A DNA stretch of 48,944 nt, from positions 34,583 through 83,526 of the forward strand of contig MFJZ01000058.1 in assembly GCA_001781025.1 (NCBI GenBank), written 5' to 3'. The notes beneath the pieces were generated by a model, which did no database searches, was not told the origin of the DNA, and was given only the letters and a program-made list of their open reading frames with translations. This DNA is from Candidatus Gottesmanbacteria bacterium RIFCSPLOWO2_01_FULL_49_10. GTDB lineage: Bacteria; Patescibacteriota; Microgenomatia; UBA10105; UBA927. The translations under genes were made by a program, and so were the position numbers. Below, piece by piece: positions 1-48,944 of this stretch (position 1 is the stretch's first letter; each line of letters begins with the position of its first letter).

Positions 1-654
1 CGTGTGCATGCTAATCAAACGTGCTGACATACCGTTTCCTTTTAATGCGCGTACAACTTCAAGACCTCTGTATAAGAGCGTCGATGTCGCAATAATAGTC
101 ACATCAGTCCCCTTTTGTACGACAATACCTTTCCCTATCCGAAAATCCGGTTTTTTCCTGTAGACGGACGGTTCACCTGCCTTACCCAATCGTATATATA
201 CGGGCCCATTGTATTTCGATGCGGCTTTCGTTGCTACCACTACTTCAAACGGATCTCCCGGACATAAAATAACTAAATTGGGTAGCGTACGCATAATACC
301 GATATCTTCCAACCCGTGATGCGTATGTCCATAAGGACCGTACGAAAAACCAGCTCCGATACCAACAATTTTTACGTTGAGATTTTGATAACAGATATCA
401 TTTCTGATCTGCTCAAAGTTTCTCATAGTCGCAAACGGAATAATGGAATAGACCCAGGGTATTTTGCCTTCCGTGGCAAGTCCGGCTGCAACACCGGTCA
501 TATTTTGCTCGGCAACACCGGCATTTATATACTGTCGGGGGCACACCTGCTGAAAATTTTCGAACGCAGAAAATCCCAAATCACCGGTCATCAAAATAAT
601 ATTTTTGTCTTTTTTTGCCAACTGCGTTAATGTTTTAATGAAAGAGATTCTCAT
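1..654 (-). CDS. Transketolase, C-terminal (pyrimidine-binding) subunit; gene runs off the left window edge
   Basis: Not in the ORF track because it is open at the window edge. Hand translation from ATG 654..652 gives MRISFIKTLTQLAKKDKNIILMTGDLGFSAFENFQQVCPRQYINAGVAEQNMTGVAAGLATEGKIPWVYSIIPFATMRNFEQIRNDI...GPYGHTHHGLEDIGIMRTLPNL, the typical split-transketolase C-terminal subunit. Its ATG overlaps the TGA of the upstream gene (ATGA at 651-654). Confidence 0.85.
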   Translation of the reverse strand, partial: MRISFIKTLTQLAKKDKNIILMTGDLGFSAFENFQQVCPRQYINAGVAEQNMTGVAAGLATEGKIPWVYSIIPFATMRNFEQIRNDICYQNLNVKIVGIGAGFSYGPYGHTHHGLEDIGIMRTLPNLVILCPGDPFEVVVATKAASKYNGPVYIRLGKAGEPSVYRKKPDFRIGKGIVVQKGTDVTIIATSTLLYRGLEVVRALKGNGMSARLISMHT

Positions 655-1481
655 AGAGACTCCAACGCACGTAGCGCTTCGATATATTCTTCTTTCGTTG
701 GCGGTTTATATTGTGATGACACCTGATCAACATGTTTTTCTACTCCGCCAATCCCCTTGATCGTATGTGCTATAACGACGGATGGCTTACCCGACTGAAA
801 CGGAATCTTCTCCAATATCTTCGATAATCCATCCTCAGCATGACCGTTCACTTCCCGGGTTTGCCAACCAAACGCTCTCCATTTGGCCGCAAACGGCTCT
901 AAATTCAAAACATCCTTTGTTTTGCCATACCCTTGCAGACCGTTCTTATCGACAAGAACGATAAGATTATCAAGTTTATGATGTCCCGCAAACAGTGCCG
1001 CTTCCCAAACAGATCCCTCGTCGCATTCCCCGTCAGAAAGTATTGCGAATACTCTCCATTTCTTGTTATCAATCTTTCCCGCAAGCGCCATACCGGCTGC
1101 CATCGGGAGACCATGACCTAATGATCCGGCAGAAATCTCTATCCCAGGAACACTATGCCTGATTGAATGCCCAGCCAATAATCCATGATCTAGTTCATAG
1201 CCTTCAAGAATTTTTTTATCAAAAAAACCTCGTTCTGAAAGCACCGCGTACAACGCCTTTGCATCATGAGCTTTGCTAAAAACCAATCTATCCCGATCTT
1301 GCGCCCAAGGCTTTTTCGGATCGATATGCATGATGCGAAAGTATAAAACGGTCAACAGTTCCACGCATGACAGTGCGCCACCCGTATGCGCACTTTGGGC
1401 ACGATAACTCATCAGCAATATCTGTTTTCGTACTTCTCTTGCAAGTTTTTTTAATTCGTCAGTTGAAATACTATATGTCAT
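651..1481 (-). CDS. Transketolase, N-terminal (thiamine-diphosphate-binding) subunit
   Basis: ORF 651..1571 contains 'AHTGGALSCVELLTVLYF', 'GSLGHGLPMAAGMALA' and the ThDP motif 'SDGECDEGSVWEAALFAGHHKLDNLIVLVDKN'. I chose the start at ATG 1481 (MTYSIS...) because it forms an ATGA overlap with the stop of the upstream GT2 gene (1478-1481). Confidence 0.9.
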   Translation of the reverse strand: MTYSISTDELKKLAREVRKQILLMSYRAQSAHTGGALSCVELLTVLYFRIMHIDPKKPWAQDRDRLVFSKAHDAKALYAVLSERGFFDKKILEGYELDHGLLAGHSIRHSVPGIEISAGSLGHGLPMAAGMALAGKIDNKKWRVFAILSDGECDEGSVWEAALFAGHHKLDNLIVLVDKNGLQGYGKTKDVLNLEPFAAKWRAFGWQTREVNGHAEDGLSKILEKIPFQSGKPSVVIAHTIKGIGGVEKHVDQVSSQYKPPTKEEYIEALRALESL

Positions 1482-2488
1482 ACGTGCAATATATTTTTCC
1501 ATGTATATGCAATTTCGGAGCGAGTATACGATAAAACAGACACAAAACAAACAATTGGGTGTAAAAACCATGCCGGATCAGGAATAGCTAAAAATCCTCG
1601 AAAAGCAACAAAAAGAGGCTGGATAAATGTGAGAGAGTACAATATAAATAAGCTCAAACGGATACAGTCGCGCGTTGAATGCGAATCAAAAACATAATAG
1701 TGACGGATTCTTCTATATGCATCATAATGTCGCTTTTTGTAAACAGACCGGCGCCGTACAAAATCCGATATATCTGAACCTGTATAGTGAATTATTTCAT
1801 TTTTGACGACACCATACGTGTCATATCCCATTGTCAATAACTGTGCAAATGCATCGGTGTGTAAAAAGTTTTCTGGCTGTTTGTTTACTTTTTCAATAAT
1901 TCGCCGTCTGACCATGTGCCCATTGTCGCCGAGCACTGGTAGATCATCTTTTGAAAAACGCACCACTAAGTAATCGTCAGTCTCATTATATATTCGTCCC
2001 AGATGATATTTTGTCTCAAAACGCGGCAGTTTTTCCGATTTATTCAGATAGTATACAGTCGGGTCATTAACACCGATAAGAGCAGTGTAACGTGTTAAGG
2101 CCGGCATATCACGTTCAAATCCGTTGTAGATACTATACGTACCTATAACTGAACCAACCGAAAACGGTGCAATCATTTGCGTCAACCAATTCTTTGTAGG
2201 AATAATGTTATCCGGCTCTAAAAACAATATAATGTTCCCTCGAGCGATTTTGATGCCCGTGCTCATTCGGGCAAGTGGCTTATCTTTATATTCCGGAAGA
2301 CGCAACACGCTACAACCATATCTTGATGCAAGAGAATCAGAACCGTTTGAAGATCCACCGTCCATTACTAAATGTTCTATCAATGTATGATCATAGTTCT
2401 GCTGACGAACGGCACGTAACACTTTCTCGAATAACTGACACTCACTATTTAAAGAACACGTAACAATGCTTATAGTATCGTGCTTCAT
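1478..2488 (-). CDS. Family-2 glycosyltransferase with a C-terminal membrane segment; paralogue of 23573..24574
   Basis: The N-terminus 'ISIVTCSLNSE...LVMDGGSSNGS...FLEPDN' is GT-A/GT2-like. The hydrophobic C-terminus is 'LSLFILYSLTFIQPLFVAFRGFLAIPDPAWFLHPIVCFVSVLSY'. It aligns end to end by eye with the product of 23573..24574. Confidence 0.8.
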   Translation of the reverse strand: MKHDTISIVTCSLNSECQLFEKVLRAVRQQNYDHTLIEHLVMDGGSSNGSDSLASRYGCSVLRLPEYKDKPLARMSTGIKIARGNIILFLEPDNIIPTKNWLTQMIAPFSVGSVIGTYSIYNGFERDMPALTRYTALIGVNDPTVYYLNKSEKLPRFETKYHLGRIYNETDDYLVVRFSKDDLPVLGDNGHMVRRRIIEKVNKQPENFLHTDAFAQLLTMGYDTYGVVKNEIIHYTGSDISDFVRRRSVYKKRHYDAYRRIRHYYVFDSHSTRDCIRLSLFILYSLTFIQPLFVAFRGFLAIPDPAWFLHPIVCFVSVLSYTRSEIAYTWKNILHV

Positions 2489-2496
2489 TCTATGGT

Positions 2497-3291
2497 TTAA
2501 GTGAGTTTTCTCTTCCGCATTCTCTTTGCGCCGGAACGTGGAGAACAGAGTATTTTGATATACACTTTTCTTCCCGACTCAATATAGTAATTGTAATATC
2601 TATCGGTGTAAGATCTTGAACGGAGAATATTTATAATCTGTTTACCGGTATATGTTTTTGAAAGATTAATCTCATCAAGGGAATTCACGTCGACTGCCTT
2701 ATGCAAAGTCGGCACTTCTGGAAAACGTGACTGGGGAATTCTTTTGTTGGTCTGTTGTTTAATTTTTGGCCATTCGTTTTTAAATAATGTAACTATTTGA
2801 TTGAGAGTCTTATTGTACAAAGTTTCCGCCGTATCCCACGGTAAAATTTTTATCTTTTTCCGCGCTATAATATCGCCGGTGTCAACTCCTCTATTTATGT
2901 AGTGCAATGATACTCCCCCATTTGACCCATCTATAAAAGGCCAAACGTTCGGATTCATTCCTCTGTTTTGAGGCAAGTATCCGGGGTGAAAATTAATACA
3001 ACCGAGTGTTGGTATGTCTATTACTTCCGGTTTGAGGATATATCCCCAGAAAGCGGAGACTCCAAGCTCAGGATTTAGTTTCTTTAAACGATGCAGGACT
3101 TTATTTTCATTTAATTCTTCGTGTACATATATATCCTGGGGTGATACGCGGGAATCCCGAACGATTTCTTTAACATAACGCTGTTTCTTAGTATCATGCA
3201 AACAAAGCGCAACTATCTCATCTTTCTGTTGTGTCAAATAGTTAGCAACCTGCCAGCCTACCCAATTATTAGCAAACAATATAATACGCAT
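2497..3291 (-). CDS. Formyltransferase, sugar N-formyltransferase-like
   Basis: 'MRIILFANNWVG' is a formyl_trans N-terminal fold. 'INFHPGYLPQNRGMNPNVWP' matches the HxxxLPxxRG folate-dependent formyltransferase motif. It sits directly downstream of a DegT aminotransferase. ATG 3291 is preferred over the TTG at 3303. Confidence 0.75.
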   Translation of the reverse strand: MRIILFANNWVGWQVANYLTQQKDEIVALCLHDTKKQRYVKEIVRDSRVSPQDIYVHEELNENKVLHRLKKLNPELGVSAFWGYILKPEVIDIPTLGCINFHPGYLPQNRGMNPNVWPFIDGSNGGVSLHYINRGVDTGDIIARKKIKILPWDTAETLYNKTLNQIVTLFKNEWPKIKQQTNKRIPQSRFPEVPTLHKAVDVNSLDEINLSKTYTGKQIINILRSRSYTDRYYNYYIESGRKVYIKILCSPRSGAKRMRKRKLT

Positions 3292-3308: not shown

Positions 3309-4451
3309 TTATTTTAATAACAATTTTCGTATTACCGAAGCAATATAATCCACCATTCTCTCAGTGAGCATGACTCCGCTCGGAAGGTTTATTCCATTAT
3401 GAGAGACATGATATGACACAGGATTATTGATCGGTTGCTTATTATAAAAACAAAACTCCGAGATGGGGAAAAAGAATGGACGTGTGTCTATCTTCATTTC
3501 GCTCATTTTTATTCTTAGTTCATCCCGTGTTATACCGAAATCTGTATCTAAAACTATTGTATTCATCCAAAAACTACTCACAACTCCTTTGCGTTCCGGG
3601 CTAAATTGGATTCCTTTTATACCTCCGAGGCGTTCCCGGTACCAACGGTTAATTCTGCGTTTACGAGCAATAAGATCGTCAATATCTTCAAGCCTCGACA
3701 ATCCCAGCGCTGCCTGAATATTACTCATTGCATACATATACCCGATTTCATTGTGCCAAAATTGTCGCGTAAAACTTATTCCGTTATCTACAATCGATCT
3801 AGCGCGCTCAATCCAACCCTTATGTTTCGTGACCAGCATCCCTCCTTCTCCGATTGAAAGTAATTTCGCACCCTGAAAACTGAATGCAGCGGCATCAGAA
3901 AGGCTTCCGACCTGCTTCCCATGGAGAGTCGATCCTAAGCCTTCGCACGCGTCCTCAAGAATATGCAAATGATGCTTTTTTGCAATTTGCGCAATGCCGT
4001 CCATATCGGCAATATTCCCATACAAATGGACTGGCATGATAACTTTTGTCTTCTTCGTGATGTATTTCTCGAGGCGCGATGTGTCAATGGACCAGGTTTC
4101 CCGATCGATATCGACAAGAATAGGTATTGCTCCAAGCTGATGCACGACATTAGCGCACGTTACATAGGTCAGGTCCGGAACAATCACCTCATCCCCCCTT
4201 CCCACCCCCATGCACACAAGAGCAATATGGAGCGCGCTTGTCCCGTGAGGCATGCTGAGTGTATATTTCGCGTTAACGTATTTGGCGAATGCTTCTTCAA
4301 ATTTGTAAATGTAATCACTATGGTGGAGATTCCATCCGTTTTTAACGGCATCACTCACGTAACGGATATCATTTTTCCCGATTTTCGGCCCTGCAGTGAG
4401 TATCATTTTTGAAGGTTGCCACATTTTATATACGATTTTACCATATGTCAT
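3309..4451 (-). CDS. DegT/DnrJ/EryC1-family NDP-sugar aminotransferase (PLP-dependent)
   Basis: Contains 'MPHGTSALHIAL', 'DEVIVPDLTYVTCANVV' and 'FSFQGAKLLSIGEGGML' with the Schiff-base Lys retained. The start is uncertain. In-frame ATGs at 4424 and 4406 are alternatives. Confidence 0.85.
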   Translation of the reverse strand: MTYGKIVYKMWQPSKMILTAGPKIGKNDIRYVSDAVKNGWNLHHSDYIYKFEEAFAKYVNAKYTLSMPHGTSALHIALVCMGVGRGDEVIVPDLTYVTCANVVHQLGAIPILVDIDRETWSIDTSRLEKYITKKTKVIMPVHLYGNIADMDGIAQIAKKHHLHILEDACEGLGSTLHGKQVGSLSDAAAFSFQGAKLLSIGEGGMLVTKHKGWIERARSIVDNGISFTRQFWHNEIGYMYAMSNIQAALGLSRLEDIDDLIARKRRINRWYRERLGGIKGIQFSPERKGVVSSFWMNTIVLDTDFGITRDELRIKMSEMKIDTRPFFFPISEFCFYNKQPINNPVSYHVSHNGINLPSGVMLTERMVDYIASVIRKLLLK

Positions 4452-4582: not shown

Positions 4583-5749
4583 ATGAGATCAAAAGAAACT
4601 ATAATCTATATCAATTTCGCTCCATATGAAAATGCCGGTAAAATTTTAGACTATATTCTTACACGATTTCATACCGTTTTAGTCTTCAGTTTCAACTTTC
4701 ATCGTTTGGGCGTACATCAGAAACCGAGCACGTTACGTATTTATCGAGAGGGGAAAATAATCGAACATTTCCGCTTGATTCAAACCCCGACGACACCGCA
4801 GATTGCATTTCTTCTTTTGCCAATTCGCTCGCTTATAATCTTTCTTCAGATAATTTTTCACGCGATCCGTCTCCACAGGGAATTCGGGCCCTATGACATA
4901 TATTTCACCGTGAACGCATTTACGGCATGGTCCGGCAACATTTTAAGACGCATAGGAATTGTGAAAAAGACTATTTTCTGGGTTTGGGATTATTACCCAC
5001 CGATAGATAAAAGCAAAATTGTGATGTTTATGCGCTGGATGTATTGGCAATTTGATAAACTAGCAAGTCATTCTGATAGTCTTATCTTTTTAAATCACAG
5101 GCTTGAAAGACTACGGAAAAAAATAAATATCCTGCCTTTGGCAAAAAGCTACCCAATTGTAGGCATAGGTACAAAAATTATAAATATACAAAGAAATCCG
5201 ACATTTTCATTATTATTTATCGGTGTATTAAAACAAAGCCAAGGACTCGACTTAATCCTATCTAATACCGAAAAATTATTTTCTACCTTCCCAGCCATAG
5301 CTCTTCACATCATCGGTTCCGGTCCCGACGAAGATTATTTCAAGAAACTGGCACAAAAAAGTAAAATGCCAATATACTTTCATGGATTGCTCGATGTATT
5401 CTCTGTTGACGCGAAACAAATAATTAAAAAAACGGCAATCGGTATAGCCCCATATAAACCGGAGCGGGGCAATGTTTCCTATTTTGGAGACCCGGCAAAA
5501 ATTAAAAATTATATCGGATACGGCTTACCTGTCATAACAACAAATGTTTTTGAATTTGCGAAAGAAATCAAAAAAACAAAATCCGGTATTGTTATTCCTT
5601 ACAACATTACATCATTTATACGTGCGTTGAAAAAAATTAATGCGGATTATAGTGAATATGCATCAAATAGTTATAAACTTTCAAAAAAATATAACTATAC
5701 TAAATATTATAATTTAATTTTCAAAAACATTACTCAAGCAACGTATTGA
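4583..5749 (+). CDS. GT-B fold glycosyltransferase (GT4-like); paralogue of 18014..19177
   Basis: The C-terminal 'LHIIGSGPDEDYFKKL...GIAPY...YFGDPAKIKNYIGYGLPVITTNV' is a Glycos_transf_1-type motif. It shares 'GIVKKTIFWVWDYYPP' with 'GLVKKTVFYTIDYIPH' in 18014..19177. ATG 4583 is preferred over the TTG at 4547. Confidence 0.7.
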   Translation: MRSKETIIYINFAPYENAGKILDYILTRFHTVLVFSFNFHRLGVHQKPSTLRIYREGKIIEHFRLIQTPTTPQIAFLLLPIRSLIIFLQIIFHAIRLHREFGPYDIYFTVNAFTAWSGNILRRIGIVKKTIFWVWDYYPPIDKSKIVMFMRWMYWQFDKLASHSDSLIFLNHRLERLRKKINILPLAKSYPIVGIGTKIINIQRNPTFSLLFIGVLKQSQGLDLILSNTEKLFSTFPAIALHIIGSGPDEDYFKKLAQKSKMPIYFHGLLDVFSVDAKQIIKKTAIGIAPYKPERGNVSYFGDPAKIKNYIGYGLPVITTNVFEFAKEIKKTKSGIVIPYNITSFIRALKKINADYSEYASNSYKLSKKYNYTKYYNLIFKNITQATY

Positions 5750-9739: not shown

Positions 9740-10278
9740 AATTTGAAAAAACGAAATTACTAGGAGTGTACATCGTCCATTTTGAACCAAAAAAGGACAA
9801 GCGGGGATATTTTGTCCGTACGTTTTGCCAGCAAGAGTTTGCCAATGCCGGTATAGCCTTTCACGTCGTCCAAATCAATCGCTCTCTCACGAAAAGGCAG
9901 GGAGCCATTCGCGGCATGCACTTCCAGCGCCAACCGCACCAAGAAGATAAGCTTGTTCAGTGCATAAAAGGAGCTATGTACGATGTAGCGCTCGATGTAC
10001 GGACGAATTCAAAGACATTTGGCCAGTGGATTGGTATCCAACTTACCAGTGACAATAACACAGCACTTTTTATCCCACAAGGCTATGCACACGGATTCCA
10101 GGTCATCGAGTCTGACACCGAGGCAGAATACTTCATGTCTCAATACTATTCACCACAGCATGCAACGGGAGTCCGGTGTACTGATCCTTTCTTTCAGATC
10201 ACCTGGCCGCTGCCTATACAATTTTCCTCCGCAAAAGACCAGGAGTGGCCACTTGTGGAAATAAATCAAAAAGCATGA
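9736..10278 (+). CDS. rfbC: NDP-4-keto-6-deoxyhexose 3,5-epimerase (RmlC/AscE cupin family)
   Basis: Contains 'DKRGYF', 'IRGMHFQ', 'KLVQCIKGAMYDVALDVR' and 'FIPQGYAHGF'. There is an ATGA overlap with the upstream stop at 9736-9739. Confidence 0.85.
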   Translation: MKFEKTKLLGVYIVHFEPKKDKRGYFVRTFCQQEFANAGIAFHVVQINRSLTKRQGAIRGMHFQRQPHQEDKLVQCIKGAMYDVALDVRTNSKTFGQWIGIQLTSDNNTALFIPQGYAHGFQVIESDTEAEYFMSQYYSPQHATGVRCTDPFFQITWPLPIQFSSAKDQEWPLVEINQKA

Positions 10279-27233: not shown

Positions 27234-27245
27234 GTCCATGGTACT

Positions 27246-27254
27246 TGATAGAAT
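27246..27254 (+). promoter_or_regulatory. Extended -10 box TGATAGAAT upstream of the DPM1-like GT2 gene
   Basis: It ends 7 nt before ATG 27262. Confidence 0.35.
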
Positions 27255-27261
27255 CAACAAA

Positions 27262-42233: not shown

Positions 42234-43329
42234 AGATACTACCTGAAAGAAACAGGGGTACTACGGTCACTATTTTTTTCACGACTGGCGTGATGCCACC
42301 CCATTCCCGGGTCCATAAAAAGGGAACGATCCGTAGTGAAAGTCCCAGGGACAACACATATGCGCCGTCCAGAACGACAATTGGACCCGGAACTAATGCG
42401 AGAAAGGTCATCGGCCAGATGAAATACCATGGATACAGTTCCTCCCGTAGGGGCGATAACAAAAAAATTACAAACATACTAACGGCTGACCATCTCCACA
42501 CAGCGTTCCAGTAAATATCGTTCTTTCTGGCTTGTTGCCACACAATCCAAACAAATACCGGAAGGAGTGCTACTGTGGCACCCTTTATCAGTATTGAACA
42601 GACGAAAATGAATGCCGACGCCAAAACGCGCCGTCGTTTCAATAAGTCAAACGCAAACAAGGCAAGAAACATCATTACGACATCGTTATGACCATCGACA
42701 AGCGTTTGTAGGATGACAAGAGGATTAAGGGCAAACCAAATAAGGTTTGTGAGTTTTTGTTGAGAATGTTTCCATAGAAACCACAACAGAAAAAGATAGA
42801 AGCCTGCAACCAAAGATTTAAATGCATACAACGTAATCAAAAGATTACCAAAACCCAACCGATACGGTATAAACGTCATGGCAATCCAGACAGGACCGTA
42901 GAGAGCAACCTTATTGGACGCATGAAGAAATGACAGCATTTGCTCGTTTCTTATGTCTATCGGCATCACGACGTACGGATTTTCCTTATAAAGGAACGTC
43001 ACCTTGGCGGTCGCGATGTAATTGAAAATATCATTAGAAAAAGCCGGAAAGGCACACACCAAACTTAGAACAGTCAGGAAAATAATCTTCCAAACAAAAC
43101 GAGCAGACACTTTTTTTTCCGAAGCGAGACCCAACAGATATCGATGGTAAACAAAAAGCACAATAAGCGTACCGACGTACCACGCTGTCGGATAAACGCG
43201 GGCAAACTGAACAAGCCGATATATTTCCCCAAAACGAGGGAATGGAGAATTTGCGTCGACGAAACCATAGGACACAAACACAAGGAGCCAAAGAACGACA
43301 AAGTAGAGGAGATGAAAAATTATAGCCAT
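42211..43329 (-). CDS. GT87/DUF2029-like polytopic membrane glycosyltransferase candidate
   Basis: 'FSNDIFNYIATAKVTFLYKENPYVVMP', 'LYGPVWI' and 'LNPLVILQTLVDGHNDVVMMFLALFAF' resemble the S.DvysY...NPY / YGP / NPL...G.ND motifs of mycobacterial-type polyprenyl-P-mannose-dependent mannosyltransferases. Confidence 0.6.
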   Translation of the reverse strand: MAIIFHLLYFVVLWLLVFVSYGFVDANSPFPRFGEIYRLVQFARVYPTAWYVGTLIVLFVYHRYLLGLASEKKVSARFVWKIIFLTVLSLVCAFPAFSNDIFNYIATAKVTFLYKENPYVVMPIDIRNEQMLSFLHASNKVALYGPVWIAMTFIPYRLGFGNLLITLYAFKSLVAGFYLFLLWFLWKHSQQKLTNLIWFALNPLVILQTLVDGHNDVVMMFLALFAFDLLKRRRVLASAFIFVCSILIKGATVALLPVFVWIVWQQARKNDIYWNAVWRWSAVSMFVIFLLSPLREELYPWYFIWPMTFLALVPGPIVVLDGAYVLSLGLSLRIVPFLWTREWGGITPVVKKIVTVVPLFLSGSIYAILKKL

Positions 43330-43343: not shown

Positions 43344-44498
43344 TTATCGAGACAGTACCTTAGTAACTACCGCGGTTATCGCTGCAACACCGATAATGAA
43401 TGTGACCGGGAGATACGGCAAGAGGAATCGGGAAGATATGACGCCGACAGATAAAAAGAGACTGTACACGATGATCCAAAAAATACATACAAGATGCGCA
43501 TAGCTTGGTCGTTGCTTTCGGATGAGAATAACCACCGCAAAGACTATCCAAACTATGGTAAAAGCCGGCCATGTCCAACGCCAGTCATCGGCATGGATAA
43601 TACTTCTGTCTCCCCACCAGGCCTGCCACTCGTTAAAAAATATAAGCCGCCAGGAAGAAAGCGGATACTGGAGTTTACTTTGTTGGTACAACAATATCCA
43701 TTTCTGAAAACCAAAAAAGTCCCACAATGAATACCCGCTCAGAAATGTCCGGAGATACGTAACAGAAAAGACCAAGAGAGATAGAGGTAAAAACATCACA
43801 AATCGCCGCGTCTTTTGCCAAACATCTTGAGACAGGAGCAGAGAAATAGAAAAACAACCCACAAGGAGTATTGCGGGAATGACCGACTTTGTTGCCATTA
43901 CAATCCCGAGAAGTATACACGTCCAGAAAAACCTTCCTCTCTTAGACTCTCGTATGAATACATAAATTGTGACGAGAATGAAAGGCAATTGAATAATATC
44001 CATAAGCGGAGTCACCTTTAGCTGATTTTCAAAAAGCGGTTCCGTCGCCATCAATAAAACCGGTAGAAGCGCAACGACGCGATCTCGTAATACTGTGAGT
44101 CCCAAGAGCCAAACAGCAACCAACGTAAAAAGCGCAAAAGGGATAGCGACGATGCGGTCGTTTTTAAACAGTGCGATAGAAAGTCCGACTATATATTTCC
44201 CCAGGGGAGTAATTTCTGAATTTATAAGAATCGGGTCTGTCCCGCGAATATACGCTCCGGATGCGTAGCCAAGTATCGTTTCATCAGGGAGAAGCGCCGT
44301 AGGCTGTTTTTGACGATACTGAGATCTTGAATACGCATCCTCTAGAAACGAATAATACGAATCGGTATAGTAGGGAGATATATACGACGCATAATTTGGT
44401 GCGATAATAACGACGAGTCGATACGCTATATATCCTGTAAAGACGAGAGACATGAGTCCCCTCGCCCAACTTCGACCGGATAAACGATGGGTATTCAT
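43344..44498 (-). CDS. PMT/GT39-like polytopic membrane glycosyltransferase candidate
   Basis: The first-loop 'LPDETILGYASGAYIRG...EITPLGKYIVGLSIALF' parallels the PMT 'DE...y...hPPLgK' motif. The start ATG 44498 forms ATGA with the upstream stop. Confidence 0.65.
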   Translation of the reverse strand: MNTHRLSGRSWARGLMSLVFTGYIAYRLVVIIAPNYASYISPYYTDSYYSFLEDAYSRSQYRQKQPTALLPDETILGYASGAYIRGTDPILINSEITPLGKYIVGLSIALFKNDRIVAIPFALFTLVAVWLLGLTVLRDRVVALLPVLLMATEPLFENQLKVTPLMDIIQLPFILVTIYVFIRESKRGRFFWTCILLGIVMATKSVIPAILLVGCFSISLLLSQDVWQKTRRFVMFLPLSLLVFSVTYLRTFLSGYSLWDFFGFQKWILLYQQSKLQYPLSSWRLIFFNEWQAWWGDRSIIHADDWRWTWPAFTIVWIVFAVVILIRKQRPSYAHLVCIFWIIVYSLFLSVGVISSRFLLPYLPVTFIIGVAAITAVVTKVLSR

Positions 44499-45037
44499 TC
44501 TATAAGTTGTAGTATATTCTGACGTATCTGTATGGACTCTTCGATATTTATTGCGATACGTAATTTTGTCGGTTTTCCTTTTTCTGGCGTCCAATCAAAT
44601 TCCACGGGTGTCGTCTTTTGGATAGACTCAAGAACTTCTCTATGCTTCTTCATTGCTTCGATAACTCTTGCCTTAATCTCTGACATGTCTTTCCCTTCTT
44701 TTATTCCTTGTCCCAGATACAGTGGAATCTGCTGTACCGCGTTATTGGATTCTTTTAGGGCGTCGGTTGCTAGAAGATACTGTTTATACTCATAGAGCGT
44801 TTTGGCTTCCACAATTTCAGAGTCAGTCAGATCGAGGTAATAGCCTAGCGATGCTATATTTCCCCAGCACCACCAACGCTTTGCCAAACGCACGAATTTC
44901 GAAATTCTATAGAATCGGTTCCCAGGCATGTAAGAGGGATACGGCAATACATAGTCACTGTAAACTCGCTGGGTACAAAGACTCATAAAAAGAATGAATA
45001 CGCTGGCTGCAATGGGAATCTTAATGTTCTGCTTCAT
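44495..45037 (-). CDS. Secreted helical protein, DUF5667-like; paralogue of 12669..13220
   Basis: The signal-like N-terminus is 'MKQNIKIPIAASVFILFMSLCTQRVYS'. It is followed by 'DYVLPYPSYMPGNRFYRISKFVRLA', which parallels 'MPYPGMLPDNSLYKLKVLRDKI'. ATG 45037 was chosen because the ORF-track extension lies inside the upstream gene. Confidence 0.55.
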   Translation of the reverse strand: MKQNIKIPIAASVFILFMSLCTQRVYSDYVLPYPSYMPGNRFYRISKFVRLAKRWWCWGNIASLGYYLDLTDSEIVEAKTLYEYKQYLLATDALKESNNAVQQIPLYLGQGIKEGKDMSEIKARVIEAMKKHREVLESIQKTTPVEFDWTPEKGKPTKLRIAINIEESIQIRQNILQLIE

Positions 45038-45824
45038 GAAATATTTTCTTGGAACCCTTGTGACGAATATGTAGATATTTTTGAAATGCAATCGGATAAT
45101 GGAGCGCGGAGAAAAGTGCAAATAATAATCCGTACCAGCCGTCGATAAAACCTTTGTGACGGACAAAAAGATTCACAAATGTCACGATCGGCAACATGAC
45201 ATTGTACTCGAGAATCGTCATCATTGTCACAAAAATGTTCTTTTGCAACAACTCATGCGCAGCAAGACTTGTGTAGGCATCTGCTTTTCTCCAATACTCC
45301 GATACTGAGCGATAGGTATTGTGAGTGAGCGGTTCATGAAGATAACCGACAGAACCGGCGATTTGTATCTGCTCATGAACGCTCTTACAGGGAAACGCTC
45401 CTTTACCGCGCTTAAACAGCCGAATGACGTAATCCGGAAATTGACCACCTTTTCTCAGCCAATGCCCGCAGAAAAAATTTTTCCTGGGTATAAAATATCC
45501 ATCACGTGTTGCTCTTTCTGTCGCCACGGTAATTGAATATATTTCTCGCTGCAACTCTCCCGATACAATCTCGTCAGCATCCAGCTGCAGAATCCATTTT
45601 CCGCTACACGCCTCAACTGCTTTTTGTTTATTCAGATGAAAAATCGGAGGATTGGGAGATGAGATGACATGCGCACCAAAACGCTTCGCGATTCCGACAG
45701 TCTTGTCCTGGGATCCGCCGTCAACGAGAATTATTTCGTCTACCCATGATGATACGCTCACAAGACAGGGAGCTATATTTTCTTCTTCGTTGTATGTTGC
45801 GATCGCCACAGATATAGTTTTCAC
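45021..45824 (-). CDS. Family-2 glycosyltransferase, WaaE/KdtX-like, with a C-terminal hydrophobic tail
   Basis: Contains 'ISVAIATYNEEENI...ILVDGGSQDKT...LQLDADE', 'GHWLRKGGQFPDYVIRLFKRGKG' and 'VHEQIQI...LHEPLTHNTYRS'. GTG 45824 forms a GTGA overlap with the upstream stop. GTG 45878 is the alternative. Confidence 0.75.
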   Translation of the reverse strand: MKTISVAIATYNEEENIAPCLVSVSSWVDEIILVDGGSQDKTVGIAKRFGAHVISSPNPPIFHLNKQKAVEACSGKWILQLDADEIVSGELQREIYSITVATERATRDGYFIPRKNFFCGHWLRKGGQFPDYVIRLFKRGKGAFPCKSVHEQIQIAGSVGYLHEPLTHNTYRSVSEYWRKADAYTSLAAHELLQKNIFVTMMTILEYNVMLPIVTFVNLFVRHKGFIDGWYGLLFALFSALHYPIAFQKYLHIRHKGSKKIFHEAEH

Positions 45825-47518
45825 GTCCTCCTCCTTTTTACTCCGACAATTACCTTTGGGAACATTCGGACCCAGCACCAGGTGAGGACAAAAAATAATA
45901 ATCCCACCAGACTCACTTGATTTGCGCGTGTTCTTAATTTGGTATCCGTAAAAGACACCATAACGCTGTGTTGACCGGGTTCAATCCAAAACGTCATGAG
46001 TCCTCGATAATCAGGATCCTGATATTGAACCTCTGTGCTATTGAGACGACTTCCGTCTATGTCTATGTTCCAACCGGGAAAATAGAGAGTATTTTCCACA
46101 ATTCTCGTTTTTGTTTTCGCGTTGATGACATAGGAGTGATGGGTGCTTTTGCGTGACCCTGGAGCTATGTTCGCGTTACCTGAAATCACCTCCGCGGGCG
46201 CGCGTGGAAAGTGCTCCATGAAACGGATTGACCATATGGGGCTACTCTCTCCCGTATCGGTAGTACCCGGATACGGCAAGTCAAATATCTTTTCATCTTT
46301 TGGGCTGTACTGCTTGGCATGCCACATCGGAATGGTCGTGACGATTGACACGAAAAGAATTACAACAACAAAACCAAGCGTGTATTTTTTGGGCAACGAT
46401 GATACTGCTATACCCCCCAAAACCGAAAGAATAAATACCGCAACAGACAAAAAACGCCAGGGAAATTGGAACTTCTGAAGGATGGTTATGGCATTCCACA
46501 ACGGCGAAGAGACACTCGTCATCATGAGTAAAATTCCAAAAAGTACTGCAAGTACAACCAGTAATAATTTTTTCCTGAGCGTATCTGTGCGAGGATGAAC
46601 TATCAATACTATCGACAAGCCTACCACAAGCAATCCAGAAATCCCGATTTCTTTCGTGAATTCGTTCCCTCCCCCCCAATTCCACGGAGACCATATAAAT
46701 GACTGCCAGGGAACAAATCGTGAAGCAAAATCACCCTTCGTCACGATATCCCGAAGCGTGTATTTGCCTTCAAGAAATGCCGGCATCCAGAAGAATGCCG
46801 AAACGAAAAAGCCAATCACCGCAAACCACCAACCGCGAACAAAAAAACCTAGTCGATCCTTGGCTTCAAAGAAAAACAAATATCCGCCGTACAGTAGTAA
46901 AAACGGCAGCATCATAAGCGACACTGCGTTGTGTGACAAAAGAAGTCCTGCAATACCCAGCCCTACCGCAAACCCGGCTGTGGCATCAGACTGACGTCCC
47001 CATGACTCCTTCAGTAGCCCCCATGCGATAAGGGGTGGAAATATGAATGCGACATGTTCGCCGATAGCGCCGCGCACGTAAAGATCAACGAACCGATATG
47101 GCGCAAAACCATAAAGAACGGCGGCGAGTGAGCCCGGTAGGGCTCCCCAGGCGGTGGATGCAAAAAGATACATCGCTAGTAAGCTTGCAATATACGAAAC
47201 CGCAAATACGAGCTTCGTGCTGTCTACGAATGAAAACCCAAGTGCATGAAAGAATGATGCGACATACGAAGGAAGCGGGTAGAGAAACATCAGGATCGGG
47301 TGCCCATATCCCCAGTTCAGGTTCCCCGCCCACCGAGGGACCAAAATGCCTTCTCTGAGAGACGCATAAAAACTGGCTATCCTTGCCACATGATCCGGAG
47401 TGTCATGACCAAGCGGTATGCCCGGGTGGAATAAATCCAATAGTGGCACGAAGGATATACTCACCAGAACAATAAGGAGCATGCGCTCAAGGTGTATTAT
47501 TTTAATCAGCTTATTCAT
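45821..47518 (-). CDS. Polytopic membrane protein of the 'PTPS-related' type (GT-C-like); paralogue of 37805..39376
   Basis: See the evidence for 37805..39376. The C-terminal module is 'LYFPGWNIDIDGSR...GQHSVMVSF' plus the terminal TM 'LVGLLFFVLTWCWV'. ATG 47518 was chosen, 4 nt after the upstream stop. Confidence 0.65.
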   Translation of the reverse strand: MNKLIKIIHLERMLLIVLVSISFVPLLDLFHPGIPLGHDTPDHVARIASFYASLREGILVPRWAGNLNWGYGHPILMFLYPLPSYVASFFHALGFSFVDSTKLVFAVSYIASLLAMYLFASTAWGALPGSLAAVLYGFAPYRFVDLYVRGAIGEHVAFIFPPLIAWGLLKESWGRQSDATAGFAVGLGIAGLLLSHNAVSLMMLPFLLLYGGYLFFFEAKDRLGFFVRGWWFAVIGFFVSAFFWMPAFLEGKYTLRDIVTKGDFASRFVPWQSFIWSPWNWGGGNEFTKEIGISGLLVVGLSIVLIVHPRTDTLRKKLLLVVLAVLFGILLMMTSVSSPLWNAITILQKFQFPWRFLSVAVFILSVLGGIAVSSLPKKYTLGFVVVILFVSIVTTIPMWHAKQYSPKDEKIFDLPYPGTTDTGESSPIWSIRFMEHFPRAPAEVISGNANIAPGSRKSTHHSYVINAKTKTRIVENTLYFPGWNIDIDGSRLNSTEVQYQDPDYRGLMTFWIEPGQHSVMVSFTDTKLRTRANQVSLVGLLFFVLTWCWVRMFPKVIVGVKRRRT

Positions 47519-47522
47519 GCGG

Positions 47523-48944
47523 TCATCGACTCGCGATACGGATCGCCTCATCGCCATTGAGATAAAAAATAGTTGCAAGCGTCGCTTGGGGGATTTCCTT
47601 GGGAGTACCGATAAAGAGTGTCTTTTCATTTTTCGTTTCACCATCCCAGTCTATCGGCCGAAACTCATATATATCAAAGCGATTTTTCCTCTCAGCAAAT
47701 CCACCGGATGCGGTACCACCCTCTGCAAGATAGCGCACGGGATCATACTTAAGGAAAAAAAGAAAAAACATGTGCGGCTGTTCGAGCCTGGTCGAAACAA
47801 CGATTCGATCATAGTCCTGCCGATGTTGCTGGGCGTATGCCGCTGCCTCTTTATACCCATACTGCCAGTACTTTGAATACTCGTGATTCATGTGACCAAA
47901 GTACATATGGAGGTAGTAGACAATATTAATCATAAAACATAAAAGAGTGAACGAGAGAATCAATGCGCCAATACCTTTTGAGTATTTTTCCTTCACGATG
48001 GAAATATAGGCTATAACCCCCGCGGCGCTAAATATTTGAAATGTCGGCAGAAAGACAAGTGTCCGTATTGCGTGGGGGAGTTCCGTGGTTGGAGATGCGG
48101 CAATCGGCGCAATGAGAAACCAAGAAAAAAGCAGTGTCCTAGCCTTATTTTTTTGTTTTCCTATCTGGTACATCCCAAACAGGAAAAACGGCAGCTCAAT
48201 AATGTATAAAAGTCCCATGTCCGGTGCGTGGTGACGAGGGTTGTCCCCAGTCAAAAATAGCCATCTCATCGAATAATGGGCGAGGTACCCGTCGACAAGC
48301 GTTTTAAACCAAACCAATCTTCTGTTGTCAAATACCAACCCCCACGCATTTCCGTCTTTACCATCTTTTTCCAGCTTGGCCACTGTTCTTGCCAGAAGCC
48401 CTGTCTGGTCTGCAAGCGAACTCGTACCGCGAAGCCTCGTAAGAGTCGACTGATTCATAAAGACAGAAAACAGCGGAAGGGCAGTGACTATCCCGACAAT
48501 TCCGCAATACAAAAAATGCCGCCGCATGACCAAAACGTGCTTTCTGTAGATAACGACAAGAAGGACAACGAGAAATGGTACAAAAATCCGCTCACTATGA
48601 TAGGCATACAACGAGAGTCCAAACAAGAATGCCGAAAAAAGAAGCATGCGTTTATTGATGAGTCCCTTAAGGAAACAGTACGTTGCAAAAATATTAAGTG
48701 CCACGCCGAGATTTGCCTCAAAGGCAATTCTTGAAAACTGTATATGCCACGGCGACAATGCCAGGAGAAGTGACGCAACCAGTGCCAGGTCTTTTCTTGA
48801 AAAAAGTTCCTTCGTTAACAGGTACGTCCCATAGACGGCGAGTATCCCAGCCAACGCCGACGGAAGTCTTACCGCCCATGTCTCCAAACCAAACAGAGCA
48901 ACAAACGGAATAGTTACATACATATAAAGTGGTGGCTTATAGTC
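47523..48944 (-). CDS. ArnT/PMT_2-like (GT39/GT83-type) polytopic glycosyltransferase; 5' end runs off the right window edge
   Basis: The reading frame stays open upstream of the track's Met. Nt 48944..48924 translate to 'DYKPPLY', then 'MYVTIPFVALFG...WAVRLPSALAGILAVYGTYLLTKELF...LALSPWHIQFSRIAFEANLG'. This is the typical ArnT-like first loop and TM2-4. Confidence 0.8.
   Translation of the reverse strand, partial: DYKPPLYMYVTIPFVALFGLETWAVRLPSALAGILAVYGTYLLTKELFSRKDLALVASLLLALSPWHIQFSRIAFEANLGVALNIFATYCFLKGLINKRMLLFSAFLFGLSLYAYHSERIFVPFLVVLLVVIYRKHVLVMRRHFLYCGIVGIVTALPLFSVFMNQSTLTRLRGTSSLADQTGLLARTVAKLEKDGKDGNAWGLVFDNRRLVWFKTLVDGYLAHYSMRWLFLTGDNPRHHAPDMGLLYIIELPFFLFGMYQIGKQKNKARTLLFSWFLIAPIAASPTTELPHAIRTLVFLPTFQIFSAAGVIAYISIVKEKYSKGIGALILSFTLLCFMINIVYYLHMYFGHMNHEYSKYWQYGYKEAAAYAQQHRQDYDRIVVSTRLEQPHMFFLFFLKYDPVRYLAEGGTASGGFAERKNRFDIYEFRPIDWDGETKNEKTLFIGTPKEIPQATLATIFYLNGDEAIRIASR

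Follow-up and report, generated by a model that had tools for sequence, protein, structure and literature searches.

How can a bacterium with a tiny genome assemble a cell-envelope glycan from a locus that contains no PGT, Wzy polymerase, ABC exporter, or LCP gene? This question is raised by a 49-kb stretch of DNA (48,944 nucleotides; hereafter the window) of a Candidatus Gottesmanbacteria bacterium (Microgenomates, CPR/Patescibacteria), which forms the middle of a glycan gene island that spans at least 65 kb when both flanks are included. We scanned all 44 window products against Pfam with hmmscan and additionally used NCBIfam profiles (Table 1). The 44 genes form an uninterrupted run, as an earlier sequence-only reading of this DNA had described, with a coding fraction of 0.986 (non-overlapping ORF tiling), and the inventory by enzyme class given in that reading was reproduced exactly: 7 extended SDRs (g09, g12, g19, g22, g26, g28, and g34), 3 DegT-fold enzymes (g05, g20, and g21), 3 methyltransferase-type enzymes (g10, g13, and g15), 1 sugar N-formyltransferase (g04), 4 GT4/GT-B enzymes (g06, g18, g27, and g33), and 8 GT2 enzymes (g03, g07, g23, g25, g29, g31, g35, and g42). 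Missing from its itemized list were the split transketolase g01/g02, the nucleotidyltransferase g08, the 3,5-epimerase g11, the 2 secreted DUF5667 proteins g14 and g41, and the small 4-TM protein g16. Large polytopic proteins number 11 (g17, g24, g30, g32, g36 to g40, g43, and g44). The genes at both window edges are truncated: g01 continues beyond the window start at its 3' end (complete gene, 307 aa; contig L008) and g44 beyond the window end at its N-terminus (complete protein, 538 aa; contigs L096/L097).

Table 1. Genes of the window with their assignments and the evidence behind them.
Gene	Position	Strand	Assignment	Evidence
g01	1..654	-	transketolase pyrimidine-binding/C-terminal subunit	Transket_pyr 3e-34
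g02	651..1481	-	transketolase N-terminal TPP-binding subunit, 276 aa	Transketolase_N 8e-36
g03	1478..2488	-	GT2	Glycos_transf_2 9e-13
g04	2497..3291	-	sugar N-formyltransferase	Formyl_trans_N + N_formyltrans_C; NF005755 2e-29
g05	3309..4451	-	DegT-family sugar aminotransferase	DegT_DnrJ_EryC1 4.5e-102
g06	4583..5749	+	GT4 (GT-B)	Glycos_transf_1 / Glyco_trans_1_4
g07	5760..6770	-	GT2, 1 predicted TM segment	Glycos_transf_2 6e-25; far under PgaC cut-off
g08	6806..7585	+	glucose-1-phosphate cytidylyltransferase-like	TIGR02623 6e-78, 262 bits vs cut-off 300
g09	7576..8550	+	NDP-glucose 4,6-dehydratase, best match CDP type	TIGR02622 3e-60
g10	8528..9739	+	NDP-hexose C-methyltransferase	Methyltransf_14 7.6e-52 + Methyltransf_13
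g11	9736..10278	+	NDP-4-keto-6-deoxyhexose 3,5-epimerase	dTDP_sugar_isom 7.6e-60
g12	10275..11141	+	RmlD-type 4-ketoreductase	RmlD_sub_bind 1e-77
g13	11166..12626	+	B12-binding radical SAM enzyme, probable C-methylase	B12-binding + Radical_SAM
g14	12669..13220	+	secreted DUF5667 protein	DUF5667 1.6e-10; N-terminal TM/signal segment
g15	13255..14199	+	SAM-dependent methyltransferase	Methyltransf_23 1e-26
g16	14196..14570	-	124 aa, 4 TM; candidate polyprenyl-P-sugar flippase or GT2 activator	TM prediction
g17	14567..18001	-	1144-aa polytopic, putative YfhO-like GT-C	transitive profile evidence
g18	18014..19306	-	GT4	Glycos_transf_1 6e-19
g19	19161..20138	-	SDR epimerase/reductase, Fcl-like	Epimerase 5e-60; NF047922 2e-63
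g20	20135..21316	-	DegT-fold, RfbH-like paralogue	Pfam + NCBIfam
g21	21334..22653	-	RfbH / CDP-6-deoxy-4-hexulose 3-dehydrase (E1)	NF011936 560 bits > cut-off 423
g22	22666..23571	-	extended SDR	Epimerase 3e-54
g23	23573..24664	-	GT2	Glycos_transf_2 3e-19
g24	24576..27206	-	876-aa polytopic, ~8 TM segments, outer F5/8-type-C (CBM32) domain	F5_F8_type_C 5e-11, TM prediction
g25	27238..27939	+	soluble DPM1-like GT2, candidate polyprenyl-phosphate sugar synthase	AglJ 1e-32, PpgS 5e-17, ArnC
g26	27945..28880	-	extended SDR	Pfam
g27	28918..30027	-	GT4	Glycos_transf_1 8e-35
g28	30032..31057	-	extended SDR, dehydratase/epimerase type	Pfam + NCBIfam
g29	31138..31941	-	polyprenyl-phosphate glycosyltransferase-type GT2	PpgS 5e-13, ArnC 1e-10
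g30	31931..33193	-	Wzx-type (MOP) flippase, 420 aa	homologues with PF01943/PF13440, named oligosaccharide flippase
g31	33199..33885	-	soluble DPM1-like GT2, candidate polyprenyl-phosphate sugar synthase	AglJ 4e-35, PpgS 2.5e-19, ArnC 4e-19
g32	33898..34992	-	GT-C, PIG-V (GT76)-like	Mannosyl_trans2 35.7 bits > cut-off 22.4
g33	34973..36025	-	GT4, kept in relatives	Pfam + locus comparison
g34	36119..37105	+	extended SDR	Pfam
g35	37109..37798	+	ArnC/DPM1-like GT2	ArnC 2e-14, profile positions 6-204 of 316
g36	37805..39376	-	GT-C, YfhO-like, g43 paralogue	YfhO weak match
g37	39373..40620	-	GT-C, family without Pfam model	AF2 + Foldseek
g38	40617..42233	-	GT-C, C-terminal outer alpha/beta domain	AF2 + Foldseek
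g39	42211..43329	-	GT-C, GT87 / MptA_B-like	GT87; TIGR03459 1e-9; PF26314 precomputed
g40	43344..44498	-	GT-C, PMT_2-like	PF13231 in family members; hhalign to g44 93.5%
g41	44495..45037	-	secreted DUF5667 protein, 180 aa	retained between g42 and g40 in related loci
g42	45021..45878	-	GT2 adjoining g43/g44, conserved there	Glycos_transf_2 1.6e-17
g43	45821..47482	-	GT-C, YfhO / PTPS_related	YfhO 28.6 bits, PTPS_related
g44	47523..48944	-	GT-C, PMT_2/PMT type	PMT_2 6.5e-16

None of the 44 window products matched Bac_transf, Glycos_transf_4, Wzy_C, Wzz, ABC_tran, LCP, or sortase families at E <= 0.01, and the coding density of 98.6% leaves no space for an overlooked gene. PGT, Wzy/WaaL, Wzz, ABC exporter, LCP, and sortase genes were likewise absent from around 9.3 kb of left flank and 6.9 kb of right flank covered by near-identical contigs. 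The sequence-only reading had named a PGT with Wzy next to the window as a finding that would refute it, and the search of both flanks for these genes was negative. For the relatives, we examined 80 loci in 80 related genomes, spanning 10 kb to either side of the g44 homologue (relatives of g44 show 37% to 65% identity), and compared one representative of each of 42 clusters (ORFs with 150 aa or more that lack a window homologue) to Pfam. PGT, ABC, Wzy (Wzy_C), Wzz, WaaL, LCP, and sortase families were all missing from the best 25 of the 57 matched Pfam families, and the absences that the sequence-only reading had claimed extend from the window over both flanks to the families listed for relatives. 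In these loci, g43 is present in 69 and g42 in 58 of 80, and the order g44-g43-g42-g41-g40-g39...g33-g29 repeats across Gottesmanbacteria and Levybacteria in arrays that hold 10.5 GT-C-like ORFs (median) within 21 kb and combine GT-C families without Pfam models with a conserved DUF5667 partner.

Ten polytopic proteins had been proposed as GT-C candidates, and Pfam, profile comparison, or AlphaFold/Foldseek supported 9 of them; the exception, g24, matched a PMT_2-type profile only weakly (domain i-E 1e-4; hhalign 16%) and is not demonstrably a GT-C enzyme. With 7 further candidates in the flanks, the 9 to 10 of the window become around 17 in the whole locus. The g36 product is 29% identical to g43 (E 2e-61; hhalign 100%). 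For g37, with an invariant D34 directly behind TM1 and an hhalign probability of 90.7% to g44, the best Foldseek matches of the AF2 model (pLDDT 91) were PglB, AglB, ArnT, STT3, ALG12, and PMT, and every match above a probability of around 0.6 was a GT-C enzyme or PIG-U, a GPI-transamidase subunit with the GT-C fold. The model of g38 (pLDDT 94; D45/R54 invariant) matched STT3, DPY19, ArnT, AglB, PglB, and AftA (lowest E 3e-8). The low-GC gene g17 (0.345) encodes a large outer domain containing DUF5667 and a C-terminal TM segment, and is linked to the GT-C enzymes transitively (g17N+LF677 to cluster c5, 92.8% over 368 columns; c5 to g43/g38, 94.6%; hhalign). A Wzy/WaaL identity was considered for the polytopic proteins and rejected: The models of g37 and g38 match GT-C structures only, and the others tested link to PMT_2, YfhO, GT87, or PIG-V instead.

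Four GT2 enzymes of the polyprenyl-P-sugar-synthase type (g25, g29, g31, and g35) adjoin GT-C genes and align with AglJ, PpgS, ArnC, and DPMS across the whole catalytic domain, but at scores far under NCBIfam equivalog cut-offs (e.g., AglJ 121 bits versus 325), so that their specificity for polyprenyl phosphate is suggested by family resemblance. Among them, g25, divergently oriented relative to g24, resembles Pyrococcus furiosus DPMS (4.6e-21), g29 further matches DPMS (1.2e-9), ArnC, and the GtrB homologue sll0501, and g31, with a DAD motif at residue 89, matched ArnC (7.5e-17) and DPMS (1e-14) in a second comparison. Synthase, flippase, and GT-C genes are neighbors in g32-g31-g30-g29, g24/g25, g35/g36, and g17/g16. 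The start of g16 overlaps the stop of g17, and its product has no Pfam or significant family match but shows weak full-length similarity to SMR proteins (E 0.03). The Wzx-like flippase noted earlier is borne out in g30 by its homologues. Taken by themselves, a Wzx-type protein and four GT4s would also suit a conventional repeat unit linked to Und-PP, with its PGT encoded elsewhere.

A polyprenyl-P-sugar GT2, a flippase, and a GT-C are the defining parts of three- or multi-component transmembrane glycosylation, an established paradigm in which the flippase exports, and the GT-C transfers, a sugar that a DPM1/ArnC/PpgS-like GT2 has linked to polyprenyl monophosphate (PMC11127046, PMC8035078; see also PMC5836110). 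In Lactococcus lactis Wps and Haloferax volcanii Agl, a GT2 initiates the glycan on polyprenyl monophosphate, soluble GTs elongate it, a Wzx-like protein flips it, and a GT-C polymerizes or transfers it, with neither PGT nor Wzy needed (PMC9574508, PMC3871713). At the level of genes, the Gottesmanbacteria locus is like these systems in its polyprenyl-P-type GT2s, Wzx-type flippase, GT-Cs, and lack of a local PGT or Wzy. Since its parts list is that of multi-component transmembrane glycosylation, we consider it rather probable that this cell-envelope glycan locus works in this way and not by Wzx/Wzy, ABC, or synthase routes. Against this reading stand the low GT2 scores, the lack of a firm GT-C match for g24 and of a significant family match for g16, and the likeness of g42 to protein/peptide GT2s. 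The sequence-only reading was right about the absences, while its implication that the locus lies outside known assembly paradigms was not supported, given the parts list and the Wps/Agl precedents.

In the scheme that we infer, including its donor lipids, step order, PGT-independent start on polyprenyl monophosphate, and acceptor, cytoplasmic enzymes would first produce unusual nucleotide sugars. These would comprise a branch that leads from CDP-glucose through 4-keto-6-deoxy to 3-deoxy forms, 6-deoxyhexoses bearing C-methyl and possibly O-methyl groups, N-formylated amino sugars, and possibly sugars with a two-carbon branch. The soluble GT2s g25, g29, g31, and g35 would then charge polyprenyl monophosphate with sugars, with the GT4s and the remaining GT2s possibly elongating a lipid-linked oligosaccharide. 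These lipid-linked sugars would be flipped by g30, possibly also by g16, before the GT-C battery would transfer, polymerize, and decorate the glycan at the membrane's outer face.

An unlikely alternative is a conventional Und-PP pathway with PGT (WecA/TagO/WbaP type), polymerase, and LCP-type ligase encoded elsewhere, in which the GT4 and GT2 enzymes build a unit that g30 flips and the GT-Cs only decorate side chains as in Gtr-type seroconversion. A Wzx-type flippase with soluble GT4/GT2 enzymes is typical for such repeat-unit assembly, and PGTs such as WecA are commonly encoded outside glycan loci. However, Wzy, Wzz, WaaL, and LCP genes are missing across at least 65 kb and from the families listed for neighbors in the 80 related loci, the number of GT-Cs and their lineage-wide conserved core far exceed the needs of side-chain decoration, and the conserved portion is the GT-C array itself and no backbone module.

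We regard it as still less likely that PMT/PMT_2, YfhO, and STT3-fold enzymes O-glycosylate secreted proteins (e.g., an S-layer protein, pilins, or DUF5667 proteins) from polyprenyl-P sugars. This idea draws on the PMT/PMT_2 matches of g44 and flanking paralogues, on STT3, DPY19, and AglB as nearest structures to the g38 model, on secreted DUF5667 proteins conserved within the array, on the prominent piliation of CPR bacteria (PMC6744442), and on g42, the GT2 with the tightest linkage to g43/g44, which is GmaR/SunS-like and not CsbB/GtrB-like, with the protein/peptide glycosyltransferases GmaR (1.4e-10) and SunS as nearest solved relatives. Yet a motif search found the WWDxG oligosaccharyltransferase motif in none of the polytopic proteins, the window showed no candidate substrate protein that has Ser/Thr-rich repeats, the CBM32-type carbohydrate-binding domain of g24 hints at a glycan acceptor, and the family names PMT_2 and YfhO do not specify the acceptor, as members also act on lipid A, teichoic acids, and glycans. 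Least probable is a mycobacterial LM/LAM-type lipoglycan, for which GT4s prime a membrane glycolipid inside and MptA/B-like, PIG-V-like, and PMT_2-like GT-Cs extend it outside from polyprenyl-P sugars, making polyprenyl-PP carrier and PGT dispensable: Although g39 (MptA_B/GT87 and TIGR03459), g32 (PIG-V), Ppm1/PpgS-like GT2s, four GT4s of the PimA/PimB fold class, and a GT-C number similar to Corynebacterineae (PMC3229680) would suit it, g39 at 37.9 bits versus a cut-off of 439 is no MptA equivalog, the Pfam scan of the 44 window products revealed no decaprenyl-phosphoarabinose or phosphatidylinositol genes, and a Wzx-type flippase is foreign to this scheme.

Under multi-component transmembrane glycosylation, a surface sugar polymer appears to be assembled mostly outside the cell membrane by around 17 membrane-embedded GT-C enzymes. 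We agree with the sequence-only reading that sequence does not identify the acceptor; our best guess is a complex heteropolysaccharide anchored to the wall or the membrane. What looks new is the scale and the lineage: An already known strategy that normally operates on a small scale is found here on an unusual one.

The 44 genes of the window (g01 to g44 in their order) cover it at a coding density of 98.6%, with neither a tRNA nor an Rfam RNA family among them. Pfam scans of all 44 products reproduced the class inventory of the sequence-only reading, that is, 7 extended SDRs (g09, g12, g19, g22, g26, g28, and g34), 3 DegT-fold enzymes (g05, g20, and g21), 3 methyltransferase-type enzymes (g10, g13, and g15), a sugar N-formyltransferase (g04), 4 GT4 glycosyltransferases of the GT-B class (g06, g18, g27, and g33), and 8 GT2 enzymes (g03, g07, g23, g25, g29, g31, g35, and g42) next to 11 large polytopic proteins (g17, g24, g30, g32, g36 to g40, g43, and g44). 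Beyond that list, we found a split transketolase (g01/g02), a nucleotidyltransferase (g08), a 3,5-epimerase (g11), 2 secreted DUF5667 proteins (g14 and g41), and a 124-aa protein with 4 transmembrane (TM) segments (g16). The absences reported in the same reading were borne out as well: None of the 44 products matched Bac_transf or Glycos_transf_4 (the initiating polyprenyl-phosphate sugar-1-phosphate transferases, PGTs), Wzy_C, Wzz, ABC_tran, LCP, or sortase families at E ≤ 0.01. Coordinates of individual features are compiled in the table.

Features of the locus with their positions in the window
Gene(s)	Position (nt)	Feature
g01/g02	1-1481, continues left	split transketolase (TPP enzyme); its operon also holds a GT2, a formyltransferase, and 2 DegT genes
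g08, g09, g20, g21	6806-8550, 20135-22653	RfbF-, RfbG-, and RfbH-like enzymes
g10	8528-9739	NDP-hexose C-methyltransferase
g13	11166-12626	B12-dependent radical SAM enzyme
g14	12669-13220	DUF5667 domain
g15	13255-14199	class I SAM methyltransferase
g16-g17	14196-18001	GC content 0.34 (0.38-0.51 in other genes)
g17, residues 679-763	~15710-15965	DUF5667 domain
g19	~19.5 kb	break of one public assembly, ~1.5 kb from g16-g17
g24	24576-27206	CBM32 / F5-F8 type C domain in the outer part (residues 625-721)
g38	40617-42233	annotated as 2 ORFs in L092/L096
g41	44495-45037	DUF5667 domain
g42	45021-45878	GT2 most tightly linked to g43/g44

Proteins from the window recur as exact copies in GCA_001003305.1 (a Microgenomates bacterium of the GW2011 series; locus tags UY10_), in a RIFCSP genome of Candidatus Gottesmanbacteria (102-kb contig; locus tags A2973_), and in a number of ENA assemblies. 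The lineage is given as Patescibacteria group, Microgenomates group, Candidatus Gottesmaniibacteriota. Compared with the deposited strains, g43 carries 2 differing residues. Using g05, g02 (276 aa), g39, g37, and g42 (262 aa), we located near-identical contigs from which both flanks could be read. To the left, the locus goes on for at least 9.3 kb with the remainder of the transketolase, a DegT enzyme, a GT4, polytopic proteins of 540 and 677 aa, a PMT_2 protein, a GT2, and a hexapeptide acyltransferase. To the right, at least 6.9 kb were read, comprising the complete g44 (538 aa) and, before it, genes for a PMT/PMT_2 protein (537 aa), for two polytopic proteins (413 and 578 aa), and for a YfhO protein of 795 aa. 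Neither flank holds a PGT together with Wzy/Wzz or an ABC transporter, the arrangement that would have made this a conventional locus. An assembly chimera was rejected because the same gene order recurs in at least 5 independent assemblies. In L092/L096 (GCA_001003305.1, LCOS01000003.1), g38 is annotated as ORFs of 217 and 264 aa; alignment placed a run of Ns at the split, i.e., a scaffold gap and not a frameshift or phase variation.

Family classification of the polytopic proteins returned no Wzy or WaaL: g30 is of the Wzx type, and 9 of the other 10 link to the membrane-embedded GT-C glycosyltransferases, as do the flank proteins, with g24 as a candidate. Specifically, g32 is PIG-V-like and exceeds the Pfam cut-off, g44 belongs to PMT_2/PMT, and g43 and g36 are YfhO-like paralogues that score 28.6 and 26.1, respectively, against a gathering threshold of 28.5, with clear YfhO proteins represented by the 795-aa flank protein and relatives of around 800 aa. 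The GT87/MptA_B-like g39 has a precomputed PF26314 match and stays below the MptA/MptB cut-offs (TIGR03459, 37.9 versus 439.4 bits; Pfam GT87, 18.5 versus 25), so by sequence it is a distant relative of mycobacterial MptA/MptB and not an equivalog. PMT_2 is detected in some members of the g40 family, whose profile matched g44 at 93.5%.

Two families required structural comparison. No member of the g37 family carries a Pfam domain, and among the Foldseek matches of the g37 model (pLDDT 91) above a probability of about 0.6 were only GT-C enzymes (PglB, AglB, ArnT, STT3, ALG12, ALG3, PMT1/2, Emb, and Aft) or the GPI-transamidase subunit PIG-U, which has a GT-C fold. Since the best E-value is a modest 7e-3 and TM-scores are 0.4-0.5, the model places g37 as a distant GT-C. 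The g38 family (1145 representatives) shows only stray DUF2298 and DUF6798 matches in Pfam, and its profile retrieved nothing from the PDB by sequence so that a fold search was required; the model (pLDDT 94) matched STT3, DPY19, ArnT, AglB, PglB, and AftA with E-values down to 3e-8, the best matches being STT3-type enzymes. WaaL, Wzy, and SEDS proteins were absent from the matches of both models. Both families have an invariant acidic residue directly after TM1 (D34 in g37 and D45 in g38), so the window encodes GT-C folds whose first outer loop carries a conserved acidic residue. No protein of the window or the flanks contains the WWDxG motif, and none of the 44 products matches STT3 in Pfam; we rejected g38 as an oligosaccharyltransferase for lack of this motif. 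Automatic annotation partly recognizes the fold, given that g37 and g39 are named “RgtA/B/C/D-like domain-containing” in UniRef.

The link is weaker for g17 and g24. As single sequences, g17N and g24N gave nothing significant in phmmer, hmmsearch, Pfam (E ≤ 10), or PDB searches, and because a scan of JGI metagenomes with g17 returned just one near-identical fragment and no other relatives, no alignment was built for either. Only when paired with its flank paralogue did g17 connect to GT-C, matching, at 92.8% over 368 columns, a GT-C cluster from related loci that in turn matched g43 and g38 at 94.6%. Like g43 and g36, g17 has a G-H-D motif after TM1 and a C-terminal TM segment, a layout typical of YfhO proteins. 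No such rescue was obtained for g24, which has around 8 TM segments and an outer CBM32-type domain and matches the PMT_2 core weakly and locally.

Candidate donor synthases and a flippase are encoded beside these enzymes. The small GT2s g25, g29, g31, and g35 (228-267 aa) align across the entire catalytic domain to AglJ, PpgS, ArnC, the Pyrococcus dolichol-phosphate-mannose synthase, and the GtrB homologue sll0501, with scores well under equivalog cut-offs (AglJ, the top NCBIfam match of g25 and g31, gives 114-121 bits versus 325), so their assignment as synthases is made at the family level only. The flippase g30 belongs to the Wzx-type MOP proteins. Homologues of g30 go by the name of oligosaccharide flippase, and since their domains are Polysacc_synt (PF01943/PF13440) and not MurJ, an assignment of g30 as MurJ was discarded; the 4-TM protein g16 is a candidate for a flippase role. 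The genes g32-g31-g30-g29 form a single co-directional block, g24 and g25 are divergently oriented, g35 lies directly beside g36, and g16 overlaps the stop codon of g17. As for g42, it is present in 58 of 80 related loci, and its nearest similarity is to GmaR and SunS, which glycosylate proteins or peptides, and not to CsbB/GtrB-type lipid-sugar synthases.

Scanning a genome collection with g44 retrieved these 80 loci, mostly from Gottesmanbacteria and Levybacteria, at 37-65% identity (65% for the best relative among GTDB representatives), with 245 g44-like ORFs in total. Their common order is [PMT_2 paralogues, YfhO] g44-g43-g42-g41-g40-g39-(g38-g37)-g36 ... g33-g32-g31-g30-g29. Of the ORFs that lack a counterpart in the window, almost all group into a few polytopic clusters, which match GT-C profiles at 92.7-99.7% or Pfam PMT_2, GT87, DUF2079, or YfhO. 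Across 48 full-length loci, a median of 10.5 of around 15 ORFs per locus are GT-C-like, and the organism's own locus, which spans at least 65 kb, holds around 17 candidate GT-C enzymes; with the largest related contigs at around 1.02 Mb, this corresponds to roughly 6% of such a genome. Many related MAG records (L011, L014, L016, and others) are titled “uncultured Gammaproteobacteria bacterium”, which look like placeholder or wrong labels because a Microgenomates-type array is present at 40-65% identity. While g29-g44 is the conserved core, the left half with its low-GC genes and assembly breaks resembles a variable, serotype-like part, in which g16-g17 may represent a cassette that is hypervariable or was acquired recently. 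We found no description of such GT-C arrays in the literature on glycosyltransferases of CPR/Patescibacteria, Microgenomates, or Gottesmanbacteria; Méheust et al. describe Microgenomates-enriched families as mostly hypothetical and often membrane proteins, with nothing further on them (PMC6744442).

The sugar genes outline what the locus may handle. Resemblance of g08, g09, and g21 to RfbF, RfbG, and RfbH (g21, 560 bits against a cut-off of 423) indicates a putative CDP-3,6-dideoxyhexose-type branch; g20 is a second RfbH-like paralogue, and an E3 reductase (RfbI/AscD) was not found anywhere in the window. Methylated 6-deoxyhexoses are suggested by g10, g11, g12, g13, and g15, and the 3 methylation chemistries in a single sugar operon (g10, g13, and g15) suggest a heavily methylated deoxysugar, while g05 and g04 suggest an N-formylated amino sugar. 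Thiamine-dependent enzymes add a two-carbon branch in yersiniose-type pathways, and by analogy the split transketolase may attach such a branch to a keto-sugar. The 3 DUF5667 domains lie in g14, g41, and g17. Of these, g41 is a signal-peptide protein with the invariant core YxLPYPxxxPG...LVEAKxLxEYxQY that is kept between g42 and g40 in relatives; the DUF5667 profile has no solved relative, and we found no mention of the domain in the literature.

How would such a locus build a glycan? The sequence-only reading had placed it outside the Wzx/Wzy, ABC, and synthase paradigms, and its misfit to these classical routes stands. As in Wzx/Wzy O-antigen or capsule loci, nucleotide-sugar genes (including the RfbF/G/H-like module) cluster with GT2/GT4 enzymes and a Wzx flippase, but PGT, Wzy, Wzz, WaaL, and Wza/Wzc are missing from window and flanks and GT-C enzymes dominate. 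No ABC_tran or ABC2_membrane match to a Wzm/Wzt-type exporter exists in window or flanks. For the synthase route, g07 reaches 83.7 bits against PgaC (cut-off 422) with one predicted TM segment, and no GT2 in the window has more than 2. What did not hold is the implication that nothing described fits: Three-component extracytoplasmic glycosylation, defined by a synthase, a flippase, and a GT-C enzyme, is established (PMC11127046, PMC8035078, and PMC5836110), and the locus probably fits this fourth route. The observation was correct, and its interpretation partly so.

We accordingly consider multi-component transmembrane glycosylation the probable mechanism. What the sequences show are the folds and families of the parts, how these adjoin, how far they are conserved, and which genes are absent locally. 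In this scheme, of which we infer the lipid donors, the order of steps, and the acceptor, nucleotide sugars would be made in the cytoplasm and moved onto polyprenyl phosphate by the DPM1-like GT2s; GT4/GT2 enzymes may extend the lipid-linked sugars, g30 would flip them, and the GT-C battery would transfer or polymerize them outside. Initiation without a PGT, taken by itself, is perhaps less likely than not.

Two characterized systems offer, by analogy, an explanation for the striking absences. In Lactococcus lactis, WpsA/B start the PSP chain on C55-P via a monophosphate intermediate, soluble GTs (WpsC-F) extend it, the Wzx-family WpsG flips it, and the GT-C enzymes WpsI and WpsJ polymerize and attach it, respectively, with no need for PGT or Wzy for that chain (PMC9574508). 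The locus may share GT2 (GT-A) initiation on polyprenyl monophosphate with this system; soluble GTs that could extend the lipid-linked unit, a Wzx-family exporter, and GT-C enzymes that would polymerize and attach are present as well. The locus differs in having around 17 GT-C candidates instead of 2-3, from families unrelated in sequence, and in that the acceptor-supplying rhamnan/ABC-transporter/LCP module was not found here, nor a recognizable WpsB/GacJ activator or two-TM WpsH-like regulator (the DUF5667 proteins have a single N-terminal TM segment). In Haloferax volcanii, the GT2 AglJ starts the N-glycan on dolichol phosphate, AglG/I/E belong to the same pathway, and AglS and AglB do their work outside; the Wzx-like AglR takes part in bringing dolichol-phosphate-mannose to the other side of the membrane, and its relative Agl15 has been proposed to flip the lipid-linked tetrasaccharide (PMC3871713). 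A GT2 start on polyprenol monophosphate, a Wzx-like protein in flipping, and GT-C enzymes outside the membrane may be common to both, whereas the STT3/AglB WWDxG motif is missing here and the host is bacterial, not archaeal. The triads GtrA/GtrB/Gtr*, ArnC/ArnE-F/ArnT, and CsbB/GtcA/YfhO (PMC11127046, PMC8035078, and PMC5836110) combine a polyprenyl-P-sugar synthase GT2, a flippase, and a GT-C enzyme, which would be the same set as in the locus; YfhO-, PMT_2-, and ArnT-like folds are present here, and the candidate synthase genes adjoin GT-C genes. Those systems add one sugar to a polymer from another pathway, while the conserved core of this locus consists of the GT-C array itself, with no sign of a backbone pathway. 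No GtrA-family match was found, and the window GT2s do without the C-terminal TM helices of GtrB, ArnC, and CsbB, in this resembling PpgS, Ppm1, and DPM1.

Three rivals, not fully exclusive of one another, have to be weighed. The strongest, though still unlikely, is that PGT, Wzy, and LCP are encoded remotely and the GT-C enzymes are decorators, which would make the locus merely conventional and unusually GT-C-rich. No PGT, ABC, or Wzy_C family is among the best 25 of the 57 Pfam families for neighbors in the 80 related loci. Protein O-glycosylation, for which the PMT-type enzymes would speak, is improbable. Least credible of all is an LM/LAM-like lipoglycan: As in Corynebacterineae LM/LAM and arabinogalactan synthesis (Ppm1, PpgS, MptA/B, PimE, Emb, and Aft; PMC3485146 and PMC3229680), many GT-C enzymes would draw on polyprenyl-P donors to assemble a complex envelope glycan outside the membrane, with GT87/MptA_B-like and PpgS/Ppm1-like members and with the GT-C candidate g24 carrying a C-terminal carbohydrate-binding domain that recalls mycobacterial EmbC, but the phylum differs, the genome is roughly 1 Mb, the genes form one island instead of being dispersed, deoxy, amino, and methylated sugars replace mannose/arabinose with no arabinose (DPA) pathway, and all family matches lie far under equivalog cut-offs.

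Multi-component transmembrane glycosylation can be taken further, albeit speculatively: In Gottesmanbacteria and Levybacteria, perhaps in Microgenomates generally, the main envelope glycopolymer might come wholly from an assembly line that needs no PGT, Wzy, or LCP and in which around 10-17 clustered GT-C enzymes, including the Pfam-less g37 and g38, polymerize and attach polyprenyl-monophosphate-linked sugars or oligosaccharides outside the cell, with secreted DUF5667 proteins serving in a novel way to regulate chain length, as a scaffold, or as the acceptor. We hold this to be doubtful; if true, GT-C assembly would be a primary and not an accessory envelope pathway in a major bacterial radiation.

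The CPR/Patescibacteria surface mediates host attachment, and its composition and biogenesis are largely unknown. What stands out is the scale of the locus, its lineage-wide conservation in CPR with a GT-C core shared across two candidate phyla, several GT-C families that no Pfam model covers, and the DUF5667 partner. If our reading is right, the makers of the dominant surface glycan in these organisms have been identified, PGT-independent GT-C assembly would extend from accessory decoration to a core pathway, and several uncharacterized GT-C families with a conserved DUF5667 partner would become available for structural and biochemical study.
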